Assembly: GCA_040380025.1 (NCBI GenBank)
Contig: JBEIJY010000002.1
Location: forward strand, 64,001-128,000
Length of the DNA stretch: 64,000 bases
DNA from: Bdellovibrionales bacterium
GTDB lineage: Bacteria; Bdellovibrionota; UBA1018; CAIMNF01
Direction of reading: 5' to 3'
Part shown: positions 16,906 to 32,759 of the stretch, piece by piece
Layout: each line of letters begins with the position of its first letter
Position numbering within the stretch: the stretch's first letter is position 1
Program-made: the position numbers and the translations under genes
The notes under the pieces: generated by a model
Told to the model about the DNA's origin: nothing
Databases searched by the model: none
What the model saw: the letters and a program-made list of their open reading frames with translations, nothing else

Positions 16906-16995
16906 GGAGAGATGGCAGAGTGGTCGATTGCACCGGTTTTGAAAACCGGCAGACTCGTAAGGGTCTCGGGGGTTCAAATCCCTCTCTCTCCGCCA
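16906..16995 (+). tRNA. tRNA-Ser (TGA)
   Basis: GGAGAGA acceptor stem, CCGGT-ttTGAaa-ACCGG anticodon arm, long variable arm, GGTTCAAATCC, ends TCTCTCCGCCA. Confidence 0.97.
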
Positions 16996-17162
16996 CTTTC
17001 CCGATCGCTCCCGCCAAACCGCTCCAATCGCCCACCGATCAATTCTGGTCCGCCTCCGCGACGTCGTGTCTCGCTGATTCGGTTCTTTGGCTTGGCGTAT
17101 GTGATTGATTTTCATGTTAAATTCACCAGATAAAATAAGCACTTGCAATGCGCGATGTATTT

Positions 17163-17185
17163 TGTATTTACATTTTGTCATTACA
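17163..17185. promoter_or_regulatory. Putative antitoxin (RHH) operator: two tandem imperfect palindromes
   Basis: TGTATTTACA (17163-17172) and TGTCATTACA (17176-17185) just upstream of the TA operon. Confidence 0.5.
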
Positions 17186-17201
17186 ATGATATCTTGATCG
17201 A

Positions 17202-17564
17202 GTGAGGGTGTCGGCATTCATCTGGGATGAACACAACAGCGATAAGTGCCTATAGCACGGTTTGAGTTTGGCCCAAATAGAGGACTTTCTATTAAGCCAA
17301 CCAACCCTGATGGACGATGATCATCACTCAGGCCAAGAGCCGATATATATTGCTTTTGGTTATTTCGAAGACCGATTTTTATTCGTGGTTTTTACCTTGA
17401 GGGTGAAAGACAAAAAACTAAAGTTTCGGGTGATTAGTGCGAGATATGCGAGAGCAAAAGAAATAAAGAGGTTAGAAGCTTATGAAAAAGCAAAAAGCAC
17501 AAGTCAGAAAAAGAAAGACGGAAGGCAAAGACCCATTAGATCGAGATATGTCTTTCGTGTTTAA
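17202..17564 (+). pseudogene. BrnT family toxin with in-frame amber stop
   Basis: From GTG 17202: MRVSAFIWDEHNSDKCL*HGLSLAQIEDF...FVVFT...RVISAR; TAG at 17253-17255 splits the FxWD and HG motifs. Confidence 0.8.
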
Positions 17565-17751
17565 CCATCCAGAAAAGTGGAAGCAATTCAGCGAGCTTTT
17601 TCAGTTCGCACCGAAAGACAAGACGATCACTCTGAGAATGAGTGCAGATCTTTTAAATCGCTACAAAGAGTTAGCGGAAAAAATGGACACAAAATACCAG
17701 AAGCTTATTCGTGAGGCTTTGCTGGAGTACCTATTGAAAAAGGCTTCGTAG
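17482..17751 (+). CDS. BrnA/CopG-like ribbon-helix-helix antitoxin
   Basis: KTITLRMSADLL..YK..A.....KYQKLIREAL; overlaps toxin 3' end; low GC. Confidence 0.85.
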   Translation: MKKQKAQVRKRKTEGKDPLDRDMSFVFNHPEKWKQFSELFQFAPKDKTITLRMSADLLNRYKELAEKMDTKYQKLIREALLEYLLKKAS

Positions 17752-22460: not shown

Positions 22461-23884
22461 ATTTTGACGAACTTGCGATTTCAGACAGCATGAAGGCACG
22501 CCTGAAAGAAATCGGCTTCACCGCGATGACTCCGATTCAGGAGGCGACGATTCCCGTGATTCTCGCGGGTCGCGATGTGATCGGCCAATCGAAGACGGGA
22601 AGCGGGAAGACCGCAGCCTTTGGGATACCGATTCTCGAAAAAATCGTCGTGCGCCAAGAAGGTCACCCTGAGCTTCAGGCCTTGATTCTGTGCCCGACCC
22701 GCGAGCTCTCGGCCCAGGTGGCTCGCGAGCTCCGGCGGCTCGGCACCAAAAAAATCGGTCTTCGGGTGATTGAGCTTGGGGGCGGAGTGCCGGGAGGCCC
22801 GCAGGCTCGCCAGCTCGAGAACGGAGTCCAGGTCGCGGTGGGCACCCCGGGGCGGGTGCTCGATCATCTCGAGCGAGGGCGGCTGGATCTGGCGAGTCTT
22901 CGGATGCTCGTGCTCGATGAGGCGGACCGGATGCTTGAGATGGGGTTTCAGGAAGAGATGGACGGGATTTTTTCGAGGCTTCCCGAATCGCGACAAACGC
23001 TGTTGTTTTCGGCGACTTTTCCGCGTGGAATCCTCGAGATGAGCGCGCGGTGCCAGAACGATGCAATTCCGCTCAAGCCCGAGGTGCCGTCGACGGACGA
23101 AGCGGAATCCTCCACGCAAGCGCTGATCCGGCAGGAGTTTCGGGTATTGGAGGGGGGAGAGGGGCAGGGGACCGATCGAACGGATGCGCTCTTGTCGCTT
23201 CTTTGGGAGACCGACCCCGAATCTGCGATCGTATTTTGCAACTTCAAGGCGGTCAGTTTTGAGCTGGTGCGCGATCTGAAAATGCTCGGCATCAGCGCCG
23301 ATTGTTTGAACGGGGATCTCGAGCAGAGGGAGCGGGACCTCGTGATGGCGCGATTCCGGAATCGAAGCCTTCGCATTCTGGTGGCCACCGATGTTGCGGC
23401 ACGGGGAATCGATGTGGCGGGGCTCGATTTGGTGGTGAACTATGAGCTTCCCCAGAAAACCGAAAATTACGTTCATCGCATCGGCCGCACCGGACGGGCC
23501 GGGAAGACCGGCCTTGCCGTCTCGCTCATTCTTCCGCGCGAGAAGGATCGCGCCCGCATGCTGGTCGGCCCGGCGTTTGGCGACGAAATCTTTGCGCCCG
23601 CCCGGACCGGCACTCCCGAAGGAGGGGCAAAACCCGCCCTTCAGGCCGGAATGGAGACACTGATCATTCTGGAAGGCCGGAAGAACAAGATGCGTCCCGG
23701 TGACATTTTAGGAGCCCTGACGGGCGAGGCCGGAGGCCTCTCGGGCGAGCAGGTGGGAAAGATCGAGATCCATGACTTTCATGCCTTCGTCGCGATCGAG
23801 AAGAAGTCCGCCGCCCGCGCGCTTGCGCGTTTGCAAGAGGGGCGAATCAAGGGTCGAAAGGTGCGGGTCGAGCGGCCGAGGTGA
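22457..23884 (+). CDS. dbpA: DEAD-box RNA helicase DbpA
   Basis: TGSGKT, PTREL, DEAD, SAT, HRIGRTGR and C-terminal RPGDILGAL...GKI RNA-binding domain; ATGA overlap at 22457. Confidence 0.9.
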   Translation: MNFDELAISDSMKARLKEIGFTAMTPIQEATIPVILAGRDVIGQSKTGSGKTAAFGIPILEKIVVRQEGHPELQALILCPTRELSAQVARELRRLGTKKIGLRVIELGGGVPGGPQARQLENGVQVAVGTPGRVLDHLERGRLDLASLRMLVLDEADRMLEMGFQEEMDGIFSRLPESRQTLLFSATFPRGILEMSARCQNDAIPLKPEVPSTDEAESSTQALIRQEFRVLEGGEGQGTDRTDALLSLLWETDPESAIVFCNFKAVSFELVRDLKMLGISADCLNGDLEQRERDLVMARFRNRSLRILVATDVAARGIDVAGLDLVVNYELPQKTENYVHRIGRTGRAGKTGLAVSLILPREKDRARMLVGPAFGDEIFAPARTGTPEGGAKPALQAGMETLIILEGRKNKMRPGDILGALTGEAGGLSGEQVGKIEIHDFHAFVAIEKKSAARALARLQEGRIKGRKVRVERPR

Positions 23885-24036
23885 ATCGTTCGAACATTCT
23901 GGTGCACAGCCGGGCCCGAAGAGCGTCAAGAAAATATCTTTTCTTTTTTCTTTTTTCCTTGACCTGACGTCTGTAAGCTTATGAAGTAATACCATTCAAC
24001 GCAGTAAAACTATTGTTTGTCAGGAAAGGGATTTTC

Positions 24037-24816
24037 ATGTCTCGGATTAATAAAATCGTCCTGTCTTTGTTTGCGTTTTCGACCTTGTTTTCGAGCCCCG
24101 CTTTCGCAGAATCATCAAAAATGCTCAATCAGAACGACTTCGTGGGAATCTCGTTTTGGATGATCTCGATGGCTCTCGTGGCGGCAACCGCCTTCTTCTT
24201 TCTCGAAACCCAGCGGGTTGCGGGAAAGTGGAAGACCTCTCTCACCGTTTCTGGTCTGGTGACCCTGGTCGCTGCGACTCACTACTTCTACATGCGTGAA
24301 GTATGGGTTGAGACGGCAAGCACCCCGACCGTATACCGGTACATTGACTGGCTCATCACGGTTCCCCTTCTGATCACCGAGTTCTATCTGATCCTTCGTG
24401 CGATCGGAAAGGCCTCTGCCGGAATCTTCTGGCGTCTGATCATCGGAACCACCGCGATGCTCGCCCTCGGATACATGGGCGAAGCCGGTTACATGGGCGT
24501 GTGGCCCGCATTCATCCTGAGCTGTCTTGCGTGGTTCTTCGTGATCTACGAAATCTACGCCGGAGAAGCAGGAAGAATCGGAACCACCCAGGCTCCTCCC
24601 GCAGTTCAATCAGCGTACCGCACCATGCGGACCATCGTGGTCTTCGGCTGGGCGGTTTATCCGATCGGATACTTCGTCGGATACCTCACCGGTGCAAACC
24701 CTGCCGACAGCATGGGAACTCTGAACATCGTTTACAACTTTGCTGACGTTGTGAACAAAATCGGCTTCGGCGTGATCATTTGGAACGTAGCCGTCACTTC
24801 GAGCGAATCGAACTGA
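24037..24816 (+). CDS. Proteorhodopsin (DTE proton pump, Leu105 green type) with signal peptide
   Basis: RYIDWLITVPLLITEF (D97/T101/L105/E108 in GPR numbering), H75 in HYFY, GWAVYP, YNFADVVNKIGFG with Schiff-base Lys; 7 TM; purine-rich SD AGGAAAGGG. Confidence 0.97.
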   Translation: MSRINKIVLSLFAFSTLFSSPAFAESSKMLNQNDFVGISFWMISMALVAATAFFFLETQRVAGKWKTSLTVSGLVTLVAATHYFYMREVWVETASTPTVYRYIDWLITVPLLITEFYLILRAIGKASAGIFWRLIIGTTAMLALGYMGEAGYMGVWPAFILSCLAWFFVIYEIYAGEAGRIGTTQAPPAVQSAYRTMRTIVVFGWAVYPIGYFVGYLTGANPADSMGTLNIVYNFADVVNKIGFGVIIWNVAVTSSESN

Positions 24817-24833
24817 TTCGAACAAAAATAAGG

Positions 24834-24868
24834 AAAAGCCCCGCGACCCTGTCGTGGGGCTTTTTTTT
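24834..24868 (+). terminator. Intrinsic terminator after the rhodopsin gene
   Basis: AAAAGCCCCGCGAC-cct-GTCGTGGGGC followed by T8. Confidence 0.85.
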
Positions 24869-24874
24869 GACCTC

Positions 24875-26866
24875 ATGAAACACTTTGATGTCGTCATTGC
24901 GGGCGGCGGTCTTTCCGGAATGATCTGCGCCGACACCCTCGCGAATTCTCCGAACACCGAACTCCGCATCGCCATTGTGGATCCCGATCCCGCGAGCCTG
25001 AAATCGAGGACTTTCGCGAGCTGGACAAAAAAATCCGAGCCTCCTCATCGGTATTCCGGCCTGGTTTCGAAGCGATGGGATCGGTTCCGGGTCACCGACC
25101 CCCGCGGGAATCCGATCGAAAGATCATTCGAAGACTATTGCTACGAGTACGTATCGGGAGAGTCGCTTTTTGAGCATTGGAATCAAAAAATCAATGCTGA
25201 TCCCCGCTTTCATCGCATCGATCAATCCGTCCGGACCATCACCGAGGAGCGAAATCCCGACACTGGACAGATTCGTGCGGTGGTGGAGCTCAAGGACGGA
25301 CGCATCCTTCATGCTGATCGGGTGTTGAGCTCTCCCGCGCGCCATCCGGGAGCGGTTCAACAAAGCTTTTTCGGGCTCGAGATCGAAACGACCGAGGAGT
25401 TCTTCGATCCGGATGTGGTGGATCTCATGGATTTTCGCTTCGAGCAAAAAGGCGAGGTCCGGTTTGTGTATCGCTTGCCCCTGAGCAAGACCCGCGCACT
25501 GGTCGAGTTCACGGTCTTTTCGGCAAGCGATGTTTCCAGAACAGACTGCGAGGCGGGACTGCAAGAGTATCTTTCTCGATTGCTGGGGCTCCCTTCGTAT
25601 TCCGTGCTCCGGACCGAATCCGGGATCATTCCGATGGGCGTGGACCCGGAGCCTTTTTTCCCCCCTTCGTTTCGAAGCCAGGTGATGGAATCGATCGGAG
25701 GAGCGGGAGGAAGAATCAAGGCCAGCACGGGATACTCCTTTCGGCGGAATCTGGAGCACCCGGAAGCGGGGACGAGCGCGGGATCTGCGCGCTTCCGGTT
25801 CCGGATGTATGATGTGCTACTGCTCGGGATGATTCGACAAAACGGCGGCGTGGTCGCCGGCGTCTTTGCCCGATTGTTCGCACGAAACCGACCGGGAGCG
25901 GTGTTTTCGTTTCTGGACGAAAAATCGCGACCCTTGGACGAGGCCAGGATTTTCTGGTCCCTGCCTTGGACGCCTTTTTTGCGACAGTTGTTGCTGGAGT
26001 ATCCTTTTCTTTTTGCCGCAATGGCAACTCTTTTGCTTCAGCATGCGATCGGAGGATTCGCCGGCTGGATCGTGCCCCTTTCGGGTCTGCTCATTACGGG
26101 CGTTCCCCATGGGAGTGTCGATCATTTGCTGAATCCAGCCCAAAAAAACAGACTTTCCTTCACGCTTCGCTATCTCATAGGAATGGCGCTTTATCTTCTC
26201 GCCTGGTGGTTTGCGCCTCTTCTGACCTTCTTGTTCTTTCTTTGGCAGTCGGCCGATCACTTCGGCGAGGCATATTGGATTCGCGCGATCCGCGCGTCCA
26301 AGAATGATCCCCTGGTTCGCGGACTGGTCTGGCTCTGGGGCCTGTTCGCGGCCGGATTCAGTGTTTTGTTTCATTGGGAAGAGGCGATGCCGATCGTGAT
26401 CGGCATCGTGGGCGATCAGGAGTGGATCCGAACACTCCCGGACTCGCGGGCTGGGTTTCTCTCGCTCGTTCTTTTTGGAATGGCCTTCATTGCGGCCCAT
26501 TTGCTCGATCGCTATGAGCGCAGGTCCAGGGGGCGGCCCCCGAGCGGTGCTCCGGCCACGCTTCTTCTCGGGGCTGTGCTCATGATGCTTCCTCTTTTAC
26601 CGGGCTTTCTTTGTTTCTTTGCGTTCTGGCATGGCTGGGATTCGATCCGGGCCCAGCGGGAGCGCATGGGGTGGAGCGTGGGCGATTACGTTCGGAAGGC
26701 GTTGCCACTCTCGGTGGTTTCATGGGCCGGAATCTTTGGCTTGATTTGGTGGTTCGACGGGCTGATTTGGAAGGTCTTTTTTATCGCGATCGGCGCTCTC
26801 ACCGCGGCCCACGTGCCCGCAATGAAGCGATTTTTACTTTCACGACCAACAGAAGAGCGGGGATGA
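24875..26866 (+). CDS. Fused lycopene beta-cyclase (CrtY) / beta-carotene 15,15'-dioxygenase (Blh/Brp)
   Basis: N-half: IAGGGLSG, LMDFR, RFVYRLP, LVEFT, ESGIIPM, GGRIKASTGYSF. C-half: multi-TM with GVPHGSVDH, SADHFG, FWHG, LTAAH (four Blh His motifs). One continuous frame. Confidence 0.9.
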   Translation: MKHFDVVIAGGGLSGMICADTLANSPNTELRIAIVDPDPASLKSRTFASWTKKSEPPHRYSGLVSKRWDRFRVTDPRGNPIERSFEDYCYEYVSGESLFEHWNQKINADPRFHRIDQSVRTITEERNPDTGQIRAVVELKDGRILHADRVLSSPARHPGAVQQSFFGLEIETTEEFFDPDVVDLMDFRFEQKGEVRFVYRLPLSKTRALVEFTVFSASDVSRTDCEAGLQEYLSRLLGLPSYSVLRTESGIIPMGVDPEPFFPPSFRSQVMESIGGAGGRIKASTGYSFRRNLEHPEAGTSAGSARFRFRMYDVLLLGMIRQNGGVVAGVFARLFARNRPGAVFSFLDEKSRPLDEARIFWSLPWTPFLRQLLLEYPFLFAAMATLLLQHAIGGFAGWIVPLSGLLITGVPHGSVDHLLNPAQKNRLSFTLRYLIGMALYLLAWWFAPLLTFLFFLWQSADHFGEAYWIRAIRASKNDPLVRGLVWLWGLFAAGFSVLFHWEEAMPIVIGIVGDQEWIRTLPDSRAGFLSLVLFGMAFIAAHLLDRYERRSRGRPPSGAPATLLLGAVLMMLPLLPGFLCFFAFWHGWDSIRAQRERMGWSVGDYVRKALPLSVVSWAGIFGLIWWFDGLIWKVFFIAIGALTAAHVPAMKRFLLSRPTEERG

Positions 26867-27689
26867 AGAGCAGGATTTTTCGAGTGGTCGGGACCACGGT
26901 CCGGTTCCGGAATGCTGTTTTCGGGTCACTCGCCGCGGTCTTCAGCAATTCGTGACCGATTTGCTGATAGAGTTTTCCGGCGAAGGCGATCGCCACGGCC
27001 GTCCGAAGGGGCAAAAATGCAATCCCCCGAAAGCCCTCGTCATACCAACGGTCAGCAAGACGCAACAACGACCGCACCGCCGGGAGCGCTCGCTCAGGTT
27101 CGTGTGCCAGCTCGCGTGCCAAGTCGTGAGCCCCTAGCCCCGGCATGAGATCAGCCGGAATGTACACTCGGCCGATCCGGGCATCGGCTTGGATGTCGCG
27201 CGCAATGTTCGTGAGCTGCATTGCCTTTCCGAGCGCGGCGGCCGGAGCCGGCGCCCGGATCGGATCGGCACCGATCACGGGGCACATCATGAGTCCCACG
27301 ACTCCGGCCACACGAAAGCAGTACTGTTCGAGTTCCGAAACGGTCGCATAGCGCGTGTCTTCGAGATCCATCCGGAACCCCGCGAGGAATTCCGCCCGGT
27401 GCGCGGGATCGACCCAGGCGGGAGGGCTGAAAGGAGAGTTTGCGTCGGTAGCGCACTCGATTTCTTGAAGCCCGCGCAGCGCAGCGGAGCGGTCAGGGGC
27501 CTCGTCGATTCGATCATCACAGTTTCGGCACCACTGATACAGCCGAAGTGCATCGTGGCGCGTGGAGCGCGGCAAAAAAAATGAAGCGAGGGCAAAGCTT
27601 TTCGATCCTTGCCGGATCACCTCCTCGGGCGAAATCGCGGGGTGAGGTCTAGGATGCGGTCGAGGGTGCTCGTCTGGCGCGGCCGTCAT
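26799..27689 (-). CDS. crtB: Phytoene synthase
   Basis: GSKSFALAS, LYQWCRNCDD, YCFRVAGVVG, LGKAMQLTNIARDI..D...GRVYIP. Confidence 0.95.
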   Translation of the reverse strand: MTAAPDEHPRPHPRPHPAISPEEVIRQGSKSFALASFFLPRSTRHDALRLYQWCRNCDDRIDEAPDRSAALRGLQEIECATDANSPFSPPAWVDPAHRAEFLAGFRMDLEDTRYATVSELEQYCFRVAGVVGLMMCPVIGADPIRAPAPAAALGKAMQLTNIARDIQADARIGRVYIPADLMPGLGAHDLARELAHEPERALPAVRSLLRLADRWYDEGFRGIAFLPLRTAVAIAFAGKLYQQIGHELLKTAASDPKTAFRNRTVVPTTRKILLFIPALLLVVKVKIASLRARGPR

Positions 27690-29213
27690 TCAGGCCTGCG
27701 CCTCGAATCGGGCCGATCGAATGTCGTCCAAGAGCAGATTCGCGGTCGCTTTTGCGGAATTCACGACTCCCGGAACCCCTGCCCCGGGATGCGTGCCGGC
27801 GCCGACAAAATAGAGACCCTTCAGGTCGGGGTCGCGATTTCGGGTGCGGAACGCAGCACTTTGCCAAAGGACGGGTTCGGCCGAGAAGGCCGCACCCAGA
27901 TGTGAGTTCAGCTCGTCCCGGAAATCCTCAGGCGTGAAGATGCGCTGGGTGACGATGTGCTTTCGCAAATCGGGAGCGTAGCGGGTCTCGATGTACTCGA
28001 GGATTTTCTCGGCATAGGCGGGGCCCTCTTTCTTCCAGTCGATCTTGAGGTTTCCGAGATGGGGAACGGGCGAAAGAACATAAAACGCCTCACATCCCTC
28101 GGGGGCCATCGACGGGTCCGAGCGGGTGGGGGCATGAAGATAGAGCGAGAAATCATCGGGGATTTCGTCATTCTTGCTGAAGATTTTTTTCAGGAGCTCG
28201 CGGTAGGATTTTCCGAACAGAATATTGTGATGGGCGAGTTTCGGATATTGCTTGCTTGTCCCGAAGTAAATCAAGAAGAGGGACATGCTCTGGGATTGCC
28301 GGAGCGCTTTCTGGCGCGAGGGGCGGACTTGTTCGGAGTTTCGAAGAAGGTGCGAGTAACTGTGAACCACATCGGCGTTCGTGACGACGATGTCGCAGGG
28401 CCAGGTCCCCTGATGCGTGCGAACCGCCGAAACGCTCGAGCCATGGGTCAAAATCTCATCGACGGGAGTCGAGAGCTCGATTCTTCCCCCAAGTTCCTGA
28501 AACAACCGCACAAGAGCGTTCACGAGTGCGCCGGTTCCTCCGCGCGGAAAGAACACGCCCCAGTTTCGTTCGAGGTAATGAATCAGGGTGTAAATCGAGG
28601 AGGTCTTGAAGGGGTCGCCGCCCACTAGCAACGAATGAAAACTGAATGCCTGGCGAAGCTCACGGTCTTCGATGTATTGCGAGACCGTCTTGAAGACCGA
28701 GCGGTGAGCCTTCAGATTCACAAGCTGGGGTGCAACCCGCACCATGCTCCAGAGATTCAAAAACGGAACATGGGCGAGCTTGGTGTAGCCCTCATCGAAG
28801 ACATTCTTCGAGTAGTTCAGGAACCGCTCATAGCCTTCGACGTCGCGCGGGGACTTCGACTGGATCTGCTCGAAGGTCGTCTTCGGATCGTTCGAGTAGT
28901 CGAAGACATAGCCGTTCTCCCAAAAGAGCCGATAAAACGGGCTCACGGGCATGAGCTCGACGTAGTCTTCCATCTTCCGGCCCGCCTCTTCGAACAACTC
29001 CTTCAGGCACTCAGGCGCGGTGATCACAGTGGGACCAGCATCGAAAACAAAGCCCTTGTCCCGGTACACATAGGCCCTGCCGCCAGGCTGGTCTCGCTTT
29101 TCGAAGAGCACCACTTCGTGTCCGGCCGTTTGCAGGCGCACGGCGGCGGCCAGTCCCGCAAAGCCACTGCCGATGACGGCGATTCTTTTTTTGTTCCTGA
29201 TTTTTTCAGCCAT
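27690..29213 (-). CDS. crtI: Phytoene desaturase
   Basis: IGSGFAGLAAA, FDAGPTVIT, FHSLLVGG, SLYLHAP, VGAGTHPGAGVPGV. Confidence 0.97.
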   Translation of the reverse strand: MAEKIRNKKRIAVIGSGFAGLAAAVRLQTAGHEVVLFEKRDQPGGRAYVYRDKGFVFDAGPTVITAPECLKELFEEAGRKMEDYVELMPVSPFYRLFWENGYVFDYSNDPKTTFEQIQSKSPRDVEGYERFLNYSKNVFDEGYTKLAHVPFLNLWSMVRVAPQLVNLKAHRSVFKTVSQYIEDRELRQAFSFHSLLVGGDPFKTSSIYTLIHYLERNWGVFFPRGGTGALVNALVRLFQELGGRIELSTPVDEILTHGSSVSAVRTHQGTWPCDIVVTNADVVHSYSHLLRNSEQVRPSRQKALRQSQSMSLFLIYFGTSKQYPKLAHHNILFGKSYRELLKKIFSKNDEIPDDFSLYLHAPTRSDPSMAPEGCEAFYVLSPVPHLGNLKIDWKKEGPAYAEKILEYIETRYAPDLRKHIVTQRIFTPEDFRDELNSHLGAAFSAEPVLWQSAAFRTRNRDPDLKGLYFVGAGTHPGAGVPGVVNSAKATANLLLDDIRSARFEAQA

Positions 29214-30303
29214 GCGAATTCATCACCTTTCTTGCCATTTCTTCGATCGGGTTCAGAGCCGGGTTCCCGGCGAATCGATCTTTGAGTCCTCTCAGACACG
29301 AATCCATCGCCTCGCAGGCTTGCGCAAGCGCCACCGCGATCACCGGATGGGTCGTCCGCGGATCGTCTTCGCCTTTTTGGATGGTTCGGGACATCAGGGC
29401 CTGGAATTTTGTGAACTCATGGGGTTCGAGCGTTGTCGCCGCAACCGCCCACACCCAGGACGGACGAATGAAGGGCCCTCTCGGGGTGTCCGATTTGCCC
29501 GATTCGCGAAACTCGGCCAGGTCATTGAACATTTGCAACAAGACCCCGAACGACTGACCGAAATCGGCAATCGTGCGACGAAGGTCCGAATGGGCAGAGG
29601 CGGCGACGGCTCCGAATTCGGCGCACATCCTCATGAGGGCGCCGGTTTTCAGGCCCAGCGTTGCCATCGAGATTGGAGTGATTTTCGCTTGGGGCAGAAA
29701 GGTCATGTCATGAGCGAGATCGAGCGACTGACCATAGTGAGCTTGAATCATGGCGTGATGATGAACCCGATAGAGCTCGAGCTCGATTTCAGCCGGGATT
29801 TTTTGAGACCGGATCAGGTCGGTCGCGCGGTAGTAGAGCCAGTTGCCGGCATTGATGGCAGAGGGCATGCCGATCAGGGCGTGCAGGGCAGGGCCGCCTC
29901 TTCGAGTCATGCTTGAGTCCTGAATGTCATCGATGATCAGGGATCCGGCATGGATCGTCTCGACCATGGCACCGAGAGAAGAGAGCAAGTCCTCGTGCTC
30001 CTTGTCTCGGACCGCTGAACCCGAGGCGAGATCAAACCCGATCGAGACCAACTGAGCCCGGACCTGTTTGCTCGGCCGGTCCAAGTATTCGTTCAGGGGG
30101 TCGAGCATGGGTGCGAGCAAAGGGGGAAGAGCTTCTTTTGGCGCGACTCCCAGCGGGAGCCATTCCCGCAAAAAAGCCAAGTCGTCCGGGCCCGGGAGGA
30201 TCATCTGCGACAAAGTACGCGGTTGGTCCGACCTCGCGGGCGGGGATGTTCTGAATGGTTCCTGGATTTCTCTTCGATTCGTCAGTTCACGAAACTCGTT
30301 CAC
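29206..30303 (-). CDS. crtE: Polyprenyl (probably geranylgeranyl) diphosphate synthase
   Basis: KQVR, HAGSLIIDDIQD, RRGGP, GQSLDL, LKTGAL; first in the crtE-crtI-crtB run; start position uncertain. Confidence 0.8.
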   Translation of the reverse strand: MNEFRELTNRREIQEPFRTSPPARSDQPRTLSQMILPGPDDLAFLREWLPLGVAPKEALPPLLAPMLDPLNEYLDRPSKQVRAQLVSIGFDLASGSAVRDKEHEDLLSSLGAMVETIHAGSLIIDDIQDSSMTRRGGPALHALIGMPSAINAGNWLYYRATDLIRSQKIPAEIELELYRVHHHAMIQAHYGQSLDLAHDMTFLPQAKITPISMATLGLKTGALMRMCAEFGAVAASAHSDLRRTIADFGQSFGVLLQMFNDLAEFRESGKSDTPRGPFIRPSWVWAVAATTLEPHEFTKFQALMSRTIQKGEDDPRTTHPVIAVALAQACEAMDSCLRGLKDRFAGNPALNPIEEMARKVMNSHG

Positions 30304-30477: not shown

Positions 30478-31308
30478 ATGAAGTGTTTCACGGCCGTGGT
30501 TGCATTTGTCCTTTCTGTTCCCCTCTTCGCCATCGCAGATGAGCGATGTTCCGATCTTCTGACCAAGAAAACCCACCAGGAGGCGATTGCCGAGGGGATT
30601 CTTGCGAGCTATGCCCCTTATCAGTACCGCCCGTTCCGACTCGAACCGCTTAGCCAGAATCAGAATGCCATCGTATTTTTGGGATCGGAGATTGATCTTC
30701 CAAAACGGAAGTTCATTTTGAAGGTCATGCCGCTCGGCGAGGCATTGAGCGACTTTTATGCTCTTCGCTTGATTCGAGGCATCCAGAAAGAGATTCGAAT
30801 CCCGATTTCCGTGGTCGATTCGGTGGTTCTCACGCCTCGACTCGGAACTCTCGCGTCAGAGACCTTGGTGCTCCAGAAAAACTCCCTCGCCCGGGGAAGA
30901 ACTTTGTTTGAGATTCTTGCCGACGAACAGGTCGCAACCGATCGAAAGAGTTACCTTCGGAATTACTATATGGCCTGGATCCATCAAATGGCGGGAGCTT
31001 TGAAGAAGAAGCGGTTTTTGGTCGAAACGAAGCGTCTGGAGTCCAACTTTTATCGAAACCAACACCGCTTCATCGAGACCCATCCGAATGCGATCGACGA
31101 TCAGCCGATTGCGCTCAGTGCGAGCCGTTTGTGGGATGAAGAGATGAGGGGCAAGGAGATGGAGCCTTTGTTCCAGTATCTCGACCGCGCATCCCGTGGT
31201 GTGCTCGAGAACCTGAGCAGTAGCGGGAACGGGATATCCATCATCCTCAAGACCGACAACATCATGGTCGATGATTCCGACCACATGGTGTTGTTTGATC
31301 CATTTTAA
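30478..31308 (+). CDS. Secreted hypothetical protein with remote kinase-like motifs
   Basis: Signal peptide; FILKV, GRTL, LKTDNIMVD, LFDPF. Confidence 0.6.
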   Translation: MKCFTAVVAFVLSVPLFAIADERCSDLLTKKTHQEAIAEGILASYAPYQYRPFRLEPLSQNQNAIVFLGSEIDLPKRKFILKVMPLGEALSDFYALRLIRGIQKEIRIPISVVDSVVLTPRLGTLASETLVLQKNSLARGRTLFEILADEQVATDRKSYLRNYYMAWIHQMAGALKKKRFLVETKRLESNFYRNQHRFIETHPNAIDDQPIALSASRLWDEEMRGKEMEPLFQYLDRASRGVLENLSSSGNGISIILKTDNIMVDDSDHMVLFDPF

Positions 31309-32759
31309 TTTTTTGGTTTCGGATTCTTTTTTTCGATCAGGGGGGCAGTCAACTTTACGCGAAGTCCGCGATCGGGATTCCCGATGGGTAGCACCAGATA
31401 CATGCTGGTGCCCGATCGAGGAAATTCCAATCCGGCCGCAATTTCGCCAGAAATCCCCTGTTTTTTTGCCCACTCCCGGAGAATCGATACATTGACAAAG
31501 CCCCGCACGGGGGTCTTTTCGGAGCTTCCGGCGAAATTTGTGCCGAAACTCGCCCCGAAACTCGCTTCACTCGAAAGCTCTTGCCCCGCTTCGGCGTTGT
31601 TTCGGATTCGAATCGGGGTCACCGACGCGTTCGCGACCAACCCGCCCTTGTGAAGTTGATACGCTCCCGTTGCCTCATTGGTTTGCCCGAGCCGTGTGAT
31701 CAATCCATAGGTGTGCCGGGCTCCTCCGGTCGAATTGGCTGATTCCGAGACTTGGACGATCAGCTGGCCGTAAGGATCGGAGCCGCGGGTCTCGTACCCC
31801 AAAAACAGGTTCTGGTTTTTCTTCTTCCATGCGACCCCGGTCAACGCCTGCTCCCGGAATGGCCTGGCGATCAATACATATTGAAGTTTTCCACCGACCC
31901 GTCGGAGCGGATTTTGACCGGAAATCCGGAAATCCAGGTAGCTGCCTCCCGGATCGGTCGCATCCACGCGGGAGCGGAGCGAGAGATCAGAATCGCCAAT
32001 CGATGCCCCCGAGGGATTCCGCCAGTGTTGTTTGTAGTCAAAACCGACCGGAATCGTGACCGGTCCCAAGGAGTAAAATCGCGGTTTGAATTTGGATTTC
32101 TTTCCCTTTTCCATCGGAATGGCCGAAAATCGGCCTGCTTCCACCGCAGATGGAACCAAGGCTGTCCATCGGCTCCCGGTGACCCAAAGATCGGGATTCG
32201 CAGGCGAAGGTTCAAGGGCAATTACCGCAAGAGGACTCGACTGCGAAGACAGTTCGAGAATCTCCGGCAAATCGGAGTCCCCCGGGGCCTGCGACGGCCG
32301 CCAAGAACAGGCATCGACGTTTTCTCCGAAAGCGGCCTTCGCCCACTCGCCATCGAGAGAGGGCGGAAAAGCCCCAATCGCGGCCTGAAGGGGTTTCAGA
32401 TTCTCTGCCACCGGAGAAACTGCTCCGGGCGGAGGTTCTTCAAAAACCGGGATTAGCTCGTGGTCGATTGCTCTGTCCGTGAAGTTGATGAACGAGGGGG
32501 TGAATCCGAGCCCCATTTGCTTTTGCATCTCGAGCGGATCCCCGAATGCGCTGGCAAGTTCGGGCAGACGTAACCATCCCTCTGGCGTGGCCAAATCCGG
32601 AAACAGTCCCGGCTGCATCACATAGTGCCCGAGAAAAAAAGCATTCCTCTCCCAATCCGAATCTTGTGCCTGCACGCGCGCCCCGATGCACCAAAAAATT
32701 GGCATCAAGATCAAGAACCGAACAGGAATCCGTATCGCCCGAAAAAACAGCGCACTCAT
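31305..32759 (-). CDS. Secreted hypothetical protein, beta-rich C-terminus
   Basis: 484-aa ORF filling the gap between neighbours; signal-like N-terminus (VQA/QD). Confidence 0.65.
   Translation of the reverse strand: MSALFFRAIRIPVRFLILMPIFWCIGARVQAQDSDWERNAFFLGHYVMQPGLFPDLATPEGWLRLPELASAFGDPLEMQKQMGLGFTPSFINFTDRAIDHELIPVFEEPPPGAVSPVAENLKPLQAAIGAFPPSLDGEWAKAAFGENVDACSWRPSQAPGDSDLPEILELSSQSSPLAVIALEPSPANPDLWVTGSRWTALVPSAVEAGRFSAIPMEKGKKSKFKPRFYSLGPVTIPVGFDYKQHWRNPSGASIGDSDLSLRSRVDATDPGGSYLDFRISGQNPLRRVGGKLQYVLIARPFREQALTGVAWKKKNQNLFLGYETRGSDPYGQLIVQVSESANSTGGARHTYGLITRLGQTNEATGAYQLHKGGLVANASVTPIRIRNNAEAGQELSSEASFGASFGTNFAGSSEKTPVRGFVNVSILREWAKKQGISGEIAAGLEFPRSGTSMYLVLPIGNPDRGLRVKLTAPLIEKKNPKPKN

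Follow-up and report, generated by a model that had tools for sequence, protein, structure and literature searches.

A fused CrtY-type lycopene cyclase and Blh domain, a putative source of retinal, beside a proteorhodopsin gene in Bdellovibrionota

A rhodopsin gene cluster with a fused gene

The window analysed here, a stretch of 64,000 nucleotides from a Bdellovibrionales bacterium, holds at 24037-30303 a rhodopsin photosystem gene cluster, with opsin, crtE, crtB, crtI, cyclase and blh. The cyclase and blh form a single forward-strand gene (24875-26866), which encodes a CrtY-type lycopene cyclase joined to a Blh domain. Upstream on the same strand lies a proteorhodopsin gene (24037-24816; Pfam PF01036). 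Its product is of the green-absorbing type, with the D-T-L-E motif as in GPR and the retinal-binding Lys, and its best PDB matches are green proteorhodopsins (E 6e-89). It is the only rhodopsin that tblastn finds in the genome, and it is likely to be the user of the retinal made by the fusion.

A terminator-like hairpin of 18 bp with a T-rich end separates the opsin stop from the ATG of the fusion; it occupies 24830-24868 (+) and ends 6 nt before that ATG. Its folding energy is -31.7 kcal/mol (z = -5.56), and 0 of 200 shuffled sequences were as stable. Hairpins lie at the same place in all 15 co-oriented relatives that were folded, fused and unfused alike, these being folds without a shuffle control. 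The hairpin of the window is likely to lower expression of the enzyme relative to the opsin, and the conserved position suggests that the opsin is expressed highly and the enzyme at a low level by read-through.

The genes for the earlier steps of the pathway are all on the opposite strand. A convergent crtB gene for phytoene synthase (26799-27689, PF00494; NF042419 scores below cut-off) overlaps the 3' end of the fusion with its own 3' end by 68 nt (26799-26866). It is followed by crtI for phytoene desaturase (27690-29213; TIGR02734, 666 bits against a cut-off of 238) and by a crtE-like gene for a polyprenyl (GGPP) synthase (29206-30303; PF00348, with the GGPP synthase models below cut-off). 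A search of the genome for carotenoid-tailoring homologues found none, and its three PF04116 proteins match no carotenoid hydroxylase model; for this reason the carotenoid pathway of this genome is likely to serve retinal only.

Several smaller features were also observed. The convergent overlap of fusion and crtB is present in loci L012-L015 and L019 as well, and in the window the codon of the invariant His646 of the Blh half (26810-26812) falls inside it. Adjoining crtE are two ORFs of 276 and 484 aa (30478-31308 on the forward and 31305-32759 on the reverse strand) without a Pfam match. At 16906-17751 the window carries a tRNA-Ser followed by a toxin-antitoxin pair of the BrnT/CopG-BrnA type.

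Reality of the fusion

A sequence-only reading of this locus had described one frame of 663 codons in which the cyclase half runs without a stop into the Blh half. The translation and both Pfam domains agree with it: the frame encodes 663 residues and has one stop, the terminal one. Lycopene_cycl (PF05834) matches residues 5-304 with 161 bits against a cut-off of 23.4, and BCD (PF15461) matches residues 405-647 with 107 bits against 28; the NCBIfam model TIGR03753 (Brp/Blh) matches residues 400-647 with 122 bits against 95.25. The motifs that had been named (WTPFLRQL, PHG, HFG, WH and LTxxH, here LTAAH) are all found where they had been placed.

For the same reading, reads or relatives with a stop or frameshift at the junction would have spoken against the fusion; among relatives we find 52 homologues and 28 of 80 GTDB loci fused in frame. 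Both Pfam domains are present in 53 of 77 homologues including the query, with 49 of the relatives at 37-55% identity and three at 25-28%; the 28 GTDB loci that carry both domains in a single frame consist of 21 close ones and seven distant ones of Bacteroidota type. Because 52 relatives spanning 25-55% identity show the same architecture, the fusion is not an artefact. A contig assembled from a public run spans 23800-27311 at a depth of 29 with no differing letters and no gaps, although this run is possibly the source of the window itself and is thus not independent. Together, the fused relatives, the GTDB loci and the gap-free contig rule out an assembly or frameshift artefact, and we regard 24875-26866 as a confirmed, genuine fusion. 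For G049, a TGA scored as internal was considered as a junction stop and rejected, being the terminal stop of the gene itself.

The cyclase half

The cyclase half (residues 1-372; 24875-25990, +) carries a GxGxxG motif (G10, G12 and G15), D36 and a putative catalytic E211. All five residues are invariant in the 44 close fusions, which are the query and 43 of its 49 relatives after exclusion of six partial ones. In a canonical CrtY that scores above the TIGR01789 cut-off, the residue aligned to E211 is the Glu of 'IEDT', and we take the Glu at this position to be the catalytic residue of lycopene cyclase. In structure comparisons with Foldseek, in which only the FAD half was matched, this part resembles geranylgeranyl reductase (GGR) and FAD/flavin monooxygenases.

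The canonical CrtY models of NCBIfam are not reached by this half (TIGR01789, 41.5 against a cut-off of 215.2; TIGR01790, 89.3 against 209.5). The match to PF05834 stops at model position 291 of 380, and in the close clade the segment after STGYSF is shortened. In the tree, the cyclase half groups with the cyclases of Bacteroidota type and away from canonical CrtY. Given the scores below cut-off and this grouping, we file it as a CrtY-type cyclase and not as canonical CrtY.

The fusion is the sole match to PF05834 and the sole match to PF15461 in the genome, which is 98% complete and has one set of crtB, crtI and crtE; a cyclase of the CrtYc/d type was not found in it. Among 29 other fusion-bearing genomes, 25 have no PF05834 match (E<=1e-8) besides the fusion, and four hold a second cyclase. 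The two halves are equally conserved, with mean identities of 0.50 and 0.48 among the close fusions and of 0.36 and 0.34 among the distant ones. As the genome has no other cyclase or Blh match and the catalytic residues are invariant, these sequence comparisons indicate that both halves are likely to be active.

The Blh half

The Blh half (residues 396-655; 26060-26839, +) is a multi-helix membrane domain recognised by PF15461 and TIGR03753, both above cut-off. Four of its residues, H412, H462, H586 and H646, do not vary in any of the 44 close or the 91 distant fusions, and neither does the cyclase Glu in the distant set. By motif order, and not by direct alignment, the four His correspond to His21, His78, His188 and His256 of the 66A03 Blh. 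In its accessible part, a recent preprint (bioRxiv 10.64898/2026.08.06.743266) proposes that these four residues form the iron plane, with His192 outside it; an older homology model, as cited there, had made His192 an iron ligand. The position of His192 is Ser590 in the window and Ser or Thr in all 44 close fusions. It also lacks His in 53 of 132 rows of stand-alone Blh (matched by regular expression and not dereplicated). As the preprint places this residue outside the iron plane, we do not treat it as defining for Blh.

Junction and predicted structure

AlphaFold2 predicts a compact single unit for the window protein (pLDDT 90.7, pTM 0.88) and likewise for a fusion from Bacteroidia (pLDDT 93.6, pTM 0.86). 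High pTM values for two large domains imply that their relative position is confidently predicted in these models. A hydrophobic all-helical domain spans residues 377-655, with seven hydropathy windows of at least 1.6, and it opens with a hydrophobic junction helix (residues 377-391; 26003-26047, +). The blocks around the junction, residues 361-400, have pLDDT values of 92-95. The stand-alone Blh proteins of L022, L042 and L072 start with a hydrophobic segment that aligns to the junction helix. Since this helix matches the N-terminus of stand-alone Blh and the last helices of the cyclase lead into it, the fusion has effectively no linker.

The junction is the least conserved part of the protein, with an identity of 0.41 among close and 0.16 among distant fusions, and the gap between the domains ranges from 26 to 56 residues across 97 full-length fusions. 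A coevolution scan (189 sequences, Meff 156) places 16 inter-domain pairs among the top 50, against a background of 45%; this is no enrichment and is uninformative. By sequence, the PDB holds no solved relative of the fusion.

Distribution among genomes

The architecture is common: among the best 150 matches of a profile search against 1.84 billion representatives, 114 are two-domain proteins, 97 of them full length, and the cyclase comes first and Blh second in all 114. In a sample of 401 genomes of the class Bacteroidia, 64 have Blh, and in 27 of these 64 (the centre genome included) it lies in a frame of 647-726 codons; the other 26 long-frame genes are all cyclase-Blh fusions, and 17 of them have a rhodopsin within about 4 kb. 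The rarity implied by the sequence-only reading is not borne out by these numbers, and the CrtY-Blh fusion is widespread in uncultured aquatic bacteria. That reading had named an architecture already in common use as one of the things that would speak against it, and as far as sequences go this is largely the case.

Within the phylum of the window the distribution is patchy: with three candidates scored per genome, the fusion was found in 4 of 400 other genomes of the phylum and in 3 of 14 others of the genus. The 21 close GTDB loci have titles that, where named, are mostly those of Bdellovibrionota (Oligoflexales, Bdellovibrionales, Bdellovibrio), and a rhodopsin adjoins the fusion in 20 of them; the contig of the remaining one begins at the gene. 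The fusion is retained across about 100 clusters at 50% identity, down to 25-35% identity.

Database labels name one half of the protein, as 'lycopene beta-cyclase' (JGI) or as 'Brp/Blh' or 'hypothetical' (NCBI). Surveys based on names may therefore miscount genomes as being without blh or crtY. Two irregularities were seen among the relatives. Loci L026, L028 and L033, titled 'uncultured Rhizobium sp.', carry fusions of the Bacteroidia clade, and these titles look doubtful; protein P0200 (672 aa) has a cyclase of the fusion clade without a Blh match in the profile.

Origin and phylogeny

Both halves fall among or beside genes of Bacteroidota type, separate from the canonical CrtY present elsewhere in the genomes of some Bdellovibrionota. 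Ten of 80 loci, and other Bacteroidia genomes besides, have rhodopsin, crtY and blh genes that abut without being fused, which is the obvious precursor layout. The fusion would have arisen when the stop codon that separated neighbouring crtY and blh genes disappeared in such a layout of Bacteroidota type, and would have reached Bdellovibrionota by lateral transfer; we consider both steps likely.

The trees behind these statements are quick LG+G4 trees of hand-picked subsets (86 Blh rows and 89 cyclase rows). The fused clades of Bdellovibrionota and of Bacteroidia each have SH-aLRT values of 99-100, and a single origin is not rejected (p-AU 0.93 and 0.44). The deep branches are unreliable, since constrained Blh trees outscored the free quick tree. 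Three rhodopsin lineages occur together with the fusion cassette, and a single genus has two of the three, which indicates shuffling and lateral transfer.

In the genus that comprises the window and loci L013, L014 and L015, two proteorhodopsin lineages lie beside the fusion, with 91% and about 40% identity to the opsin of the window, and the gene orientations differ. A divergent cyclase-Blh fusion at L085:1471-3579 (G145), which adjoins a proteorhodopsin with the gene order of the window, falls outside both main clades and possibly represents a separate origin.

How the two halves may work together

We think it probable that this single chain converts lycopene through beta-carotene to retinal for the neighbouring proteorhodopsin, that the Blh half tethers the cyclase and that the carotenoid passes between the two sites through the bilayer. 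CrtE, CrtB and CrtI, encoded on the opposite strand, would supply the lycopene. The cyclase half, with reduced FAD and Glu211, would cyclise the lycopene ends, and the Blh half, with iron on His412, His462, His586 and His646 and with O2, would cut beta-carotene at the 15,15' position. The predicted membrane domain of Blh would keep the cyclase on the membrane, and carotenoid would move from one site to the other via the bilayer, in a leaky manner and without a sealed channel.

Membrane anchoring of the cyclase had already been proposed in the sequence-only reading, and we consider it likely, with an engineered analogue in its favour. According to the accessible text of PMC10165439, bacterial CrtY is membrane-associated without a transmembrane helix, and the faster cyclisation by a synthetic CrtZ-CrtY fusion is ascribed to its location at the membrane. 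By analogy, it is plausible that the fusion brings an advantage by fixing an otherwise peripheral cyclase to the membrane.

The reading had gone further and proposed direct channelling of beta-carotene to the cleavage site. In its strict form, a rigid junction would align the product exit of the cyclase with the Blh cavity, so that most of the beta- or gamma-carotene is passed on directly and little of it enters the bulk membrane. The lack of a disordered linker and the high pTM in both clades are compatible with such a hand-off, as are the invariable order of the domains with its narrow range of gaps and the genome of the window itself, in which the pathway may serve retinal alone. It is opposed by the loci of xanthorhodopsin type. 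At 13 fused loci the neighbouring gene encodes a xanthorhodopsin, and 12 of the 13 have a cruF-like gene, 11 of them also with genes for a crtW-like enzyme, an acyltransferase and a glycosyltransferase; the product expected from these tailoring genes is a monocyclic keto-carotenoid glycoside ester of antenna type. At all 13 the fusion is the only cyclase found in a search for the CrtY and CrtYc/d types. Because the tailoring genes are present and no other cyclase of these types was found, the cyclised carotenoid would have to leave the fusion at these loci.

A second line of evidence against strict channelling is the loss of the cyclase half where it has become redundant. In all five relatives whose Blh belongs to the same clade and is without a cyclase half, a cyclase is encoded elsewhere in the genome by a gene of its own, and the one that was scanned, in L115, passes TIGR01789. 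These five genomes represent about three events, since they are related and three are in one genus. At L024:5443-6759 the cyclase half has been cut by in-frame deletions to about 150 residues, with three collinear fragments left, and the genome holds a separate cyclase; the L024 protein nests among fused proteins with a support of 99, and we interpret it as decay of the cyclase half in progress. For L021 and L044, an unfused ancestral position is not rejected by the tree (p-AU 0.80). Redundancy does not always lead to loss of the cyclase half, since four of the 29 genomes hold both the fusion and a second cyclase. In addition, the junction is the least conserved part of the protein, and the two ring closures needed per lycopene, together with a substrate dissolved in the bilayer, would make a single tunnel unlikely. 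Overall, the comparisons of loci and proteins make strict channelling unlikely.

Leaky passage through the bilayer with a tethered cyclase also has to be weighed against a fusion of little consequence, in which losing the stop that kept overlapping crtY and blh genes apart did no harm, the compact cassette was transferred as a unit, and kinetics and localisation are as for split genes. In Bacteroidota, crtY and blh commonly abut or overlap, splits or losses occur within both fused clades (L024 and L180), and the cassette is patchy in genus and phylum and has three rhodopsin lineages as partners, all of which would fit such a history. Against it stands the retention across about 100 clusters and down to low identity with few reversions, which suggests some selection on the fusion and leads us to regard near-neutrality as quite improbable. 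Least of all do we expect one half to be inactive or to use another substrate, for instance as a structural remnant or a monocyclase making only gamma-carotene: the low canonical CrtY scores, the shortened segment, the missing His192 and the monocyclic product that the xanthorhodopsin loci would need point that way, and a monocyclase would still supply retinal because Blh can cleave gamma-carotene (bioRxiv 10.64898/2026.08.06.743266, accessible part), but invariant catalytic residues, equal conservation of the halves and the failure to find another cyclase or Blh in the genome make this highly improbable.

Relation to known systems

We found no description of a CrtY-Blh fusion in the literature searched, to which subscription papers, patents and supplements could add one. 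The accessible parts of PMC5877348, PMC7734400, PMC2889829, PMC12852478, PMC13344046 and the Kin4B8 preprint contain nothing on it. Zeng 2020 (PMC7701988) describes rhodopsin-bearing Oligoflexia MAGs, some of which are among the loci studied here, and its accessible text makes no mention of a fusion. A string 'blh-crtY' in the literature was considered as a report of a fusion and rejected, since it gives a gene order. The statement in the sequence-only reading that no characterised CrtY-Blh fusion was known is in this sense upheld, but a cyclase-Blh precedent with another type of cyclase exists in Thecamonas (PMC10016063, accessible part).

The comparisons that follow rest on the accessible portions of the sources cited. 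The separate crtY and blh genes of PR-crtE-crtI-crtB-crtY-blh operons and of rhodopsin-crtY-blh operons in Bacteroidota (PMC10284914, PMC10675870) share with the window the gene families, their order, the neighbours and the predicted product. In contrast to these operons, the window has one polypeptide, crtE, crtI and crtB are on the opposite strand, and both halves are of Bacteroidota type in a Bdellovibrionota-like host. The nearest precedent is the CrtI-CrtB-CrtYc/d-Blh protein of Thecamonas trahens (XP_013761525.1; PMC10016063), likewise a natural chain with a lycopene cyclase domain ahead of a C-terminal Blh; unlike the protein of the window, it is eukaryotic, has four domains and uses a CrtYc/d cyclase in place of the FAD-dependent CrtY type. 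Consecutive steps are also fused in fungal CrtYB/CarRA, thraustochytrid CrtIBY and verrucomicrobial CrtIB (PMC10016063, PMC10284914), the last of which also lies in a proteorhodopsin operon (PMC10284914), but none of these couples an FAD-type CrtY to a cleavage enzyme. The Blh of the uncultured marine bacterium 66A03 (UniProt Q4PNI0) has the same predicted iron plane of four His and the same multi-helix membrane fold (bioRxiv 10.64898/2026.08.06.743266); it is a stand-alone protein with His192, which the fusions lack. In the synthetic CrtZ-CrtY fusions (PMC10165439), CrtY is likewise tethered to the membrane enzyme of the next step; these are engineered, and CrtY worked poorly at the N-terminus, whereas in the natural CrtY-Blh proteins it is always N-terminal.

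The fusion is a real, overlooked and widespread variant of a known pathway, with an activity that is putative; the surprise is moderate, since chemistry and pathway were already known. If active as predicted, it would mean that retinal production in a large part of the aquatic rhodopsin users runs through an apparently unreported fused enzyme. It also provides more than 100 natural junctions, tested by evolution, for retinoid engineering. With its fused, split and decayed members, the family lends itself to a clean natural test between tethering and channelling of substrates dissolved in the membrane. A bolder combination of claims is doubtful: that a rigid junction delivers carotene directly to the iron and determines how much carotenoid becomes retinal and how much serves as antenna, that this is the form of about four in ten Blh-bearing Bacteroidia and of rhodopsin-bearing Bdellovibrionota, hidden by database names for one half, and that it would serve as a one-gene lycopene-to-retinal part that beats split genes.

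Three loci of Bdellovibrionota (L002:4582-10836, L020:4571-10846 and L022:4552-9659) carry xanthorhodopsins with crtW-like, cruF-like, acyltransferase and glycosyltransferase genes. These clusters are likely to be the native antenna-carotenoid pathway of the group to which the source of Kin4B8 belongs. The xanthorhodopsin of L002 keeps a Gly after Trp, as at Gly156 of XR.
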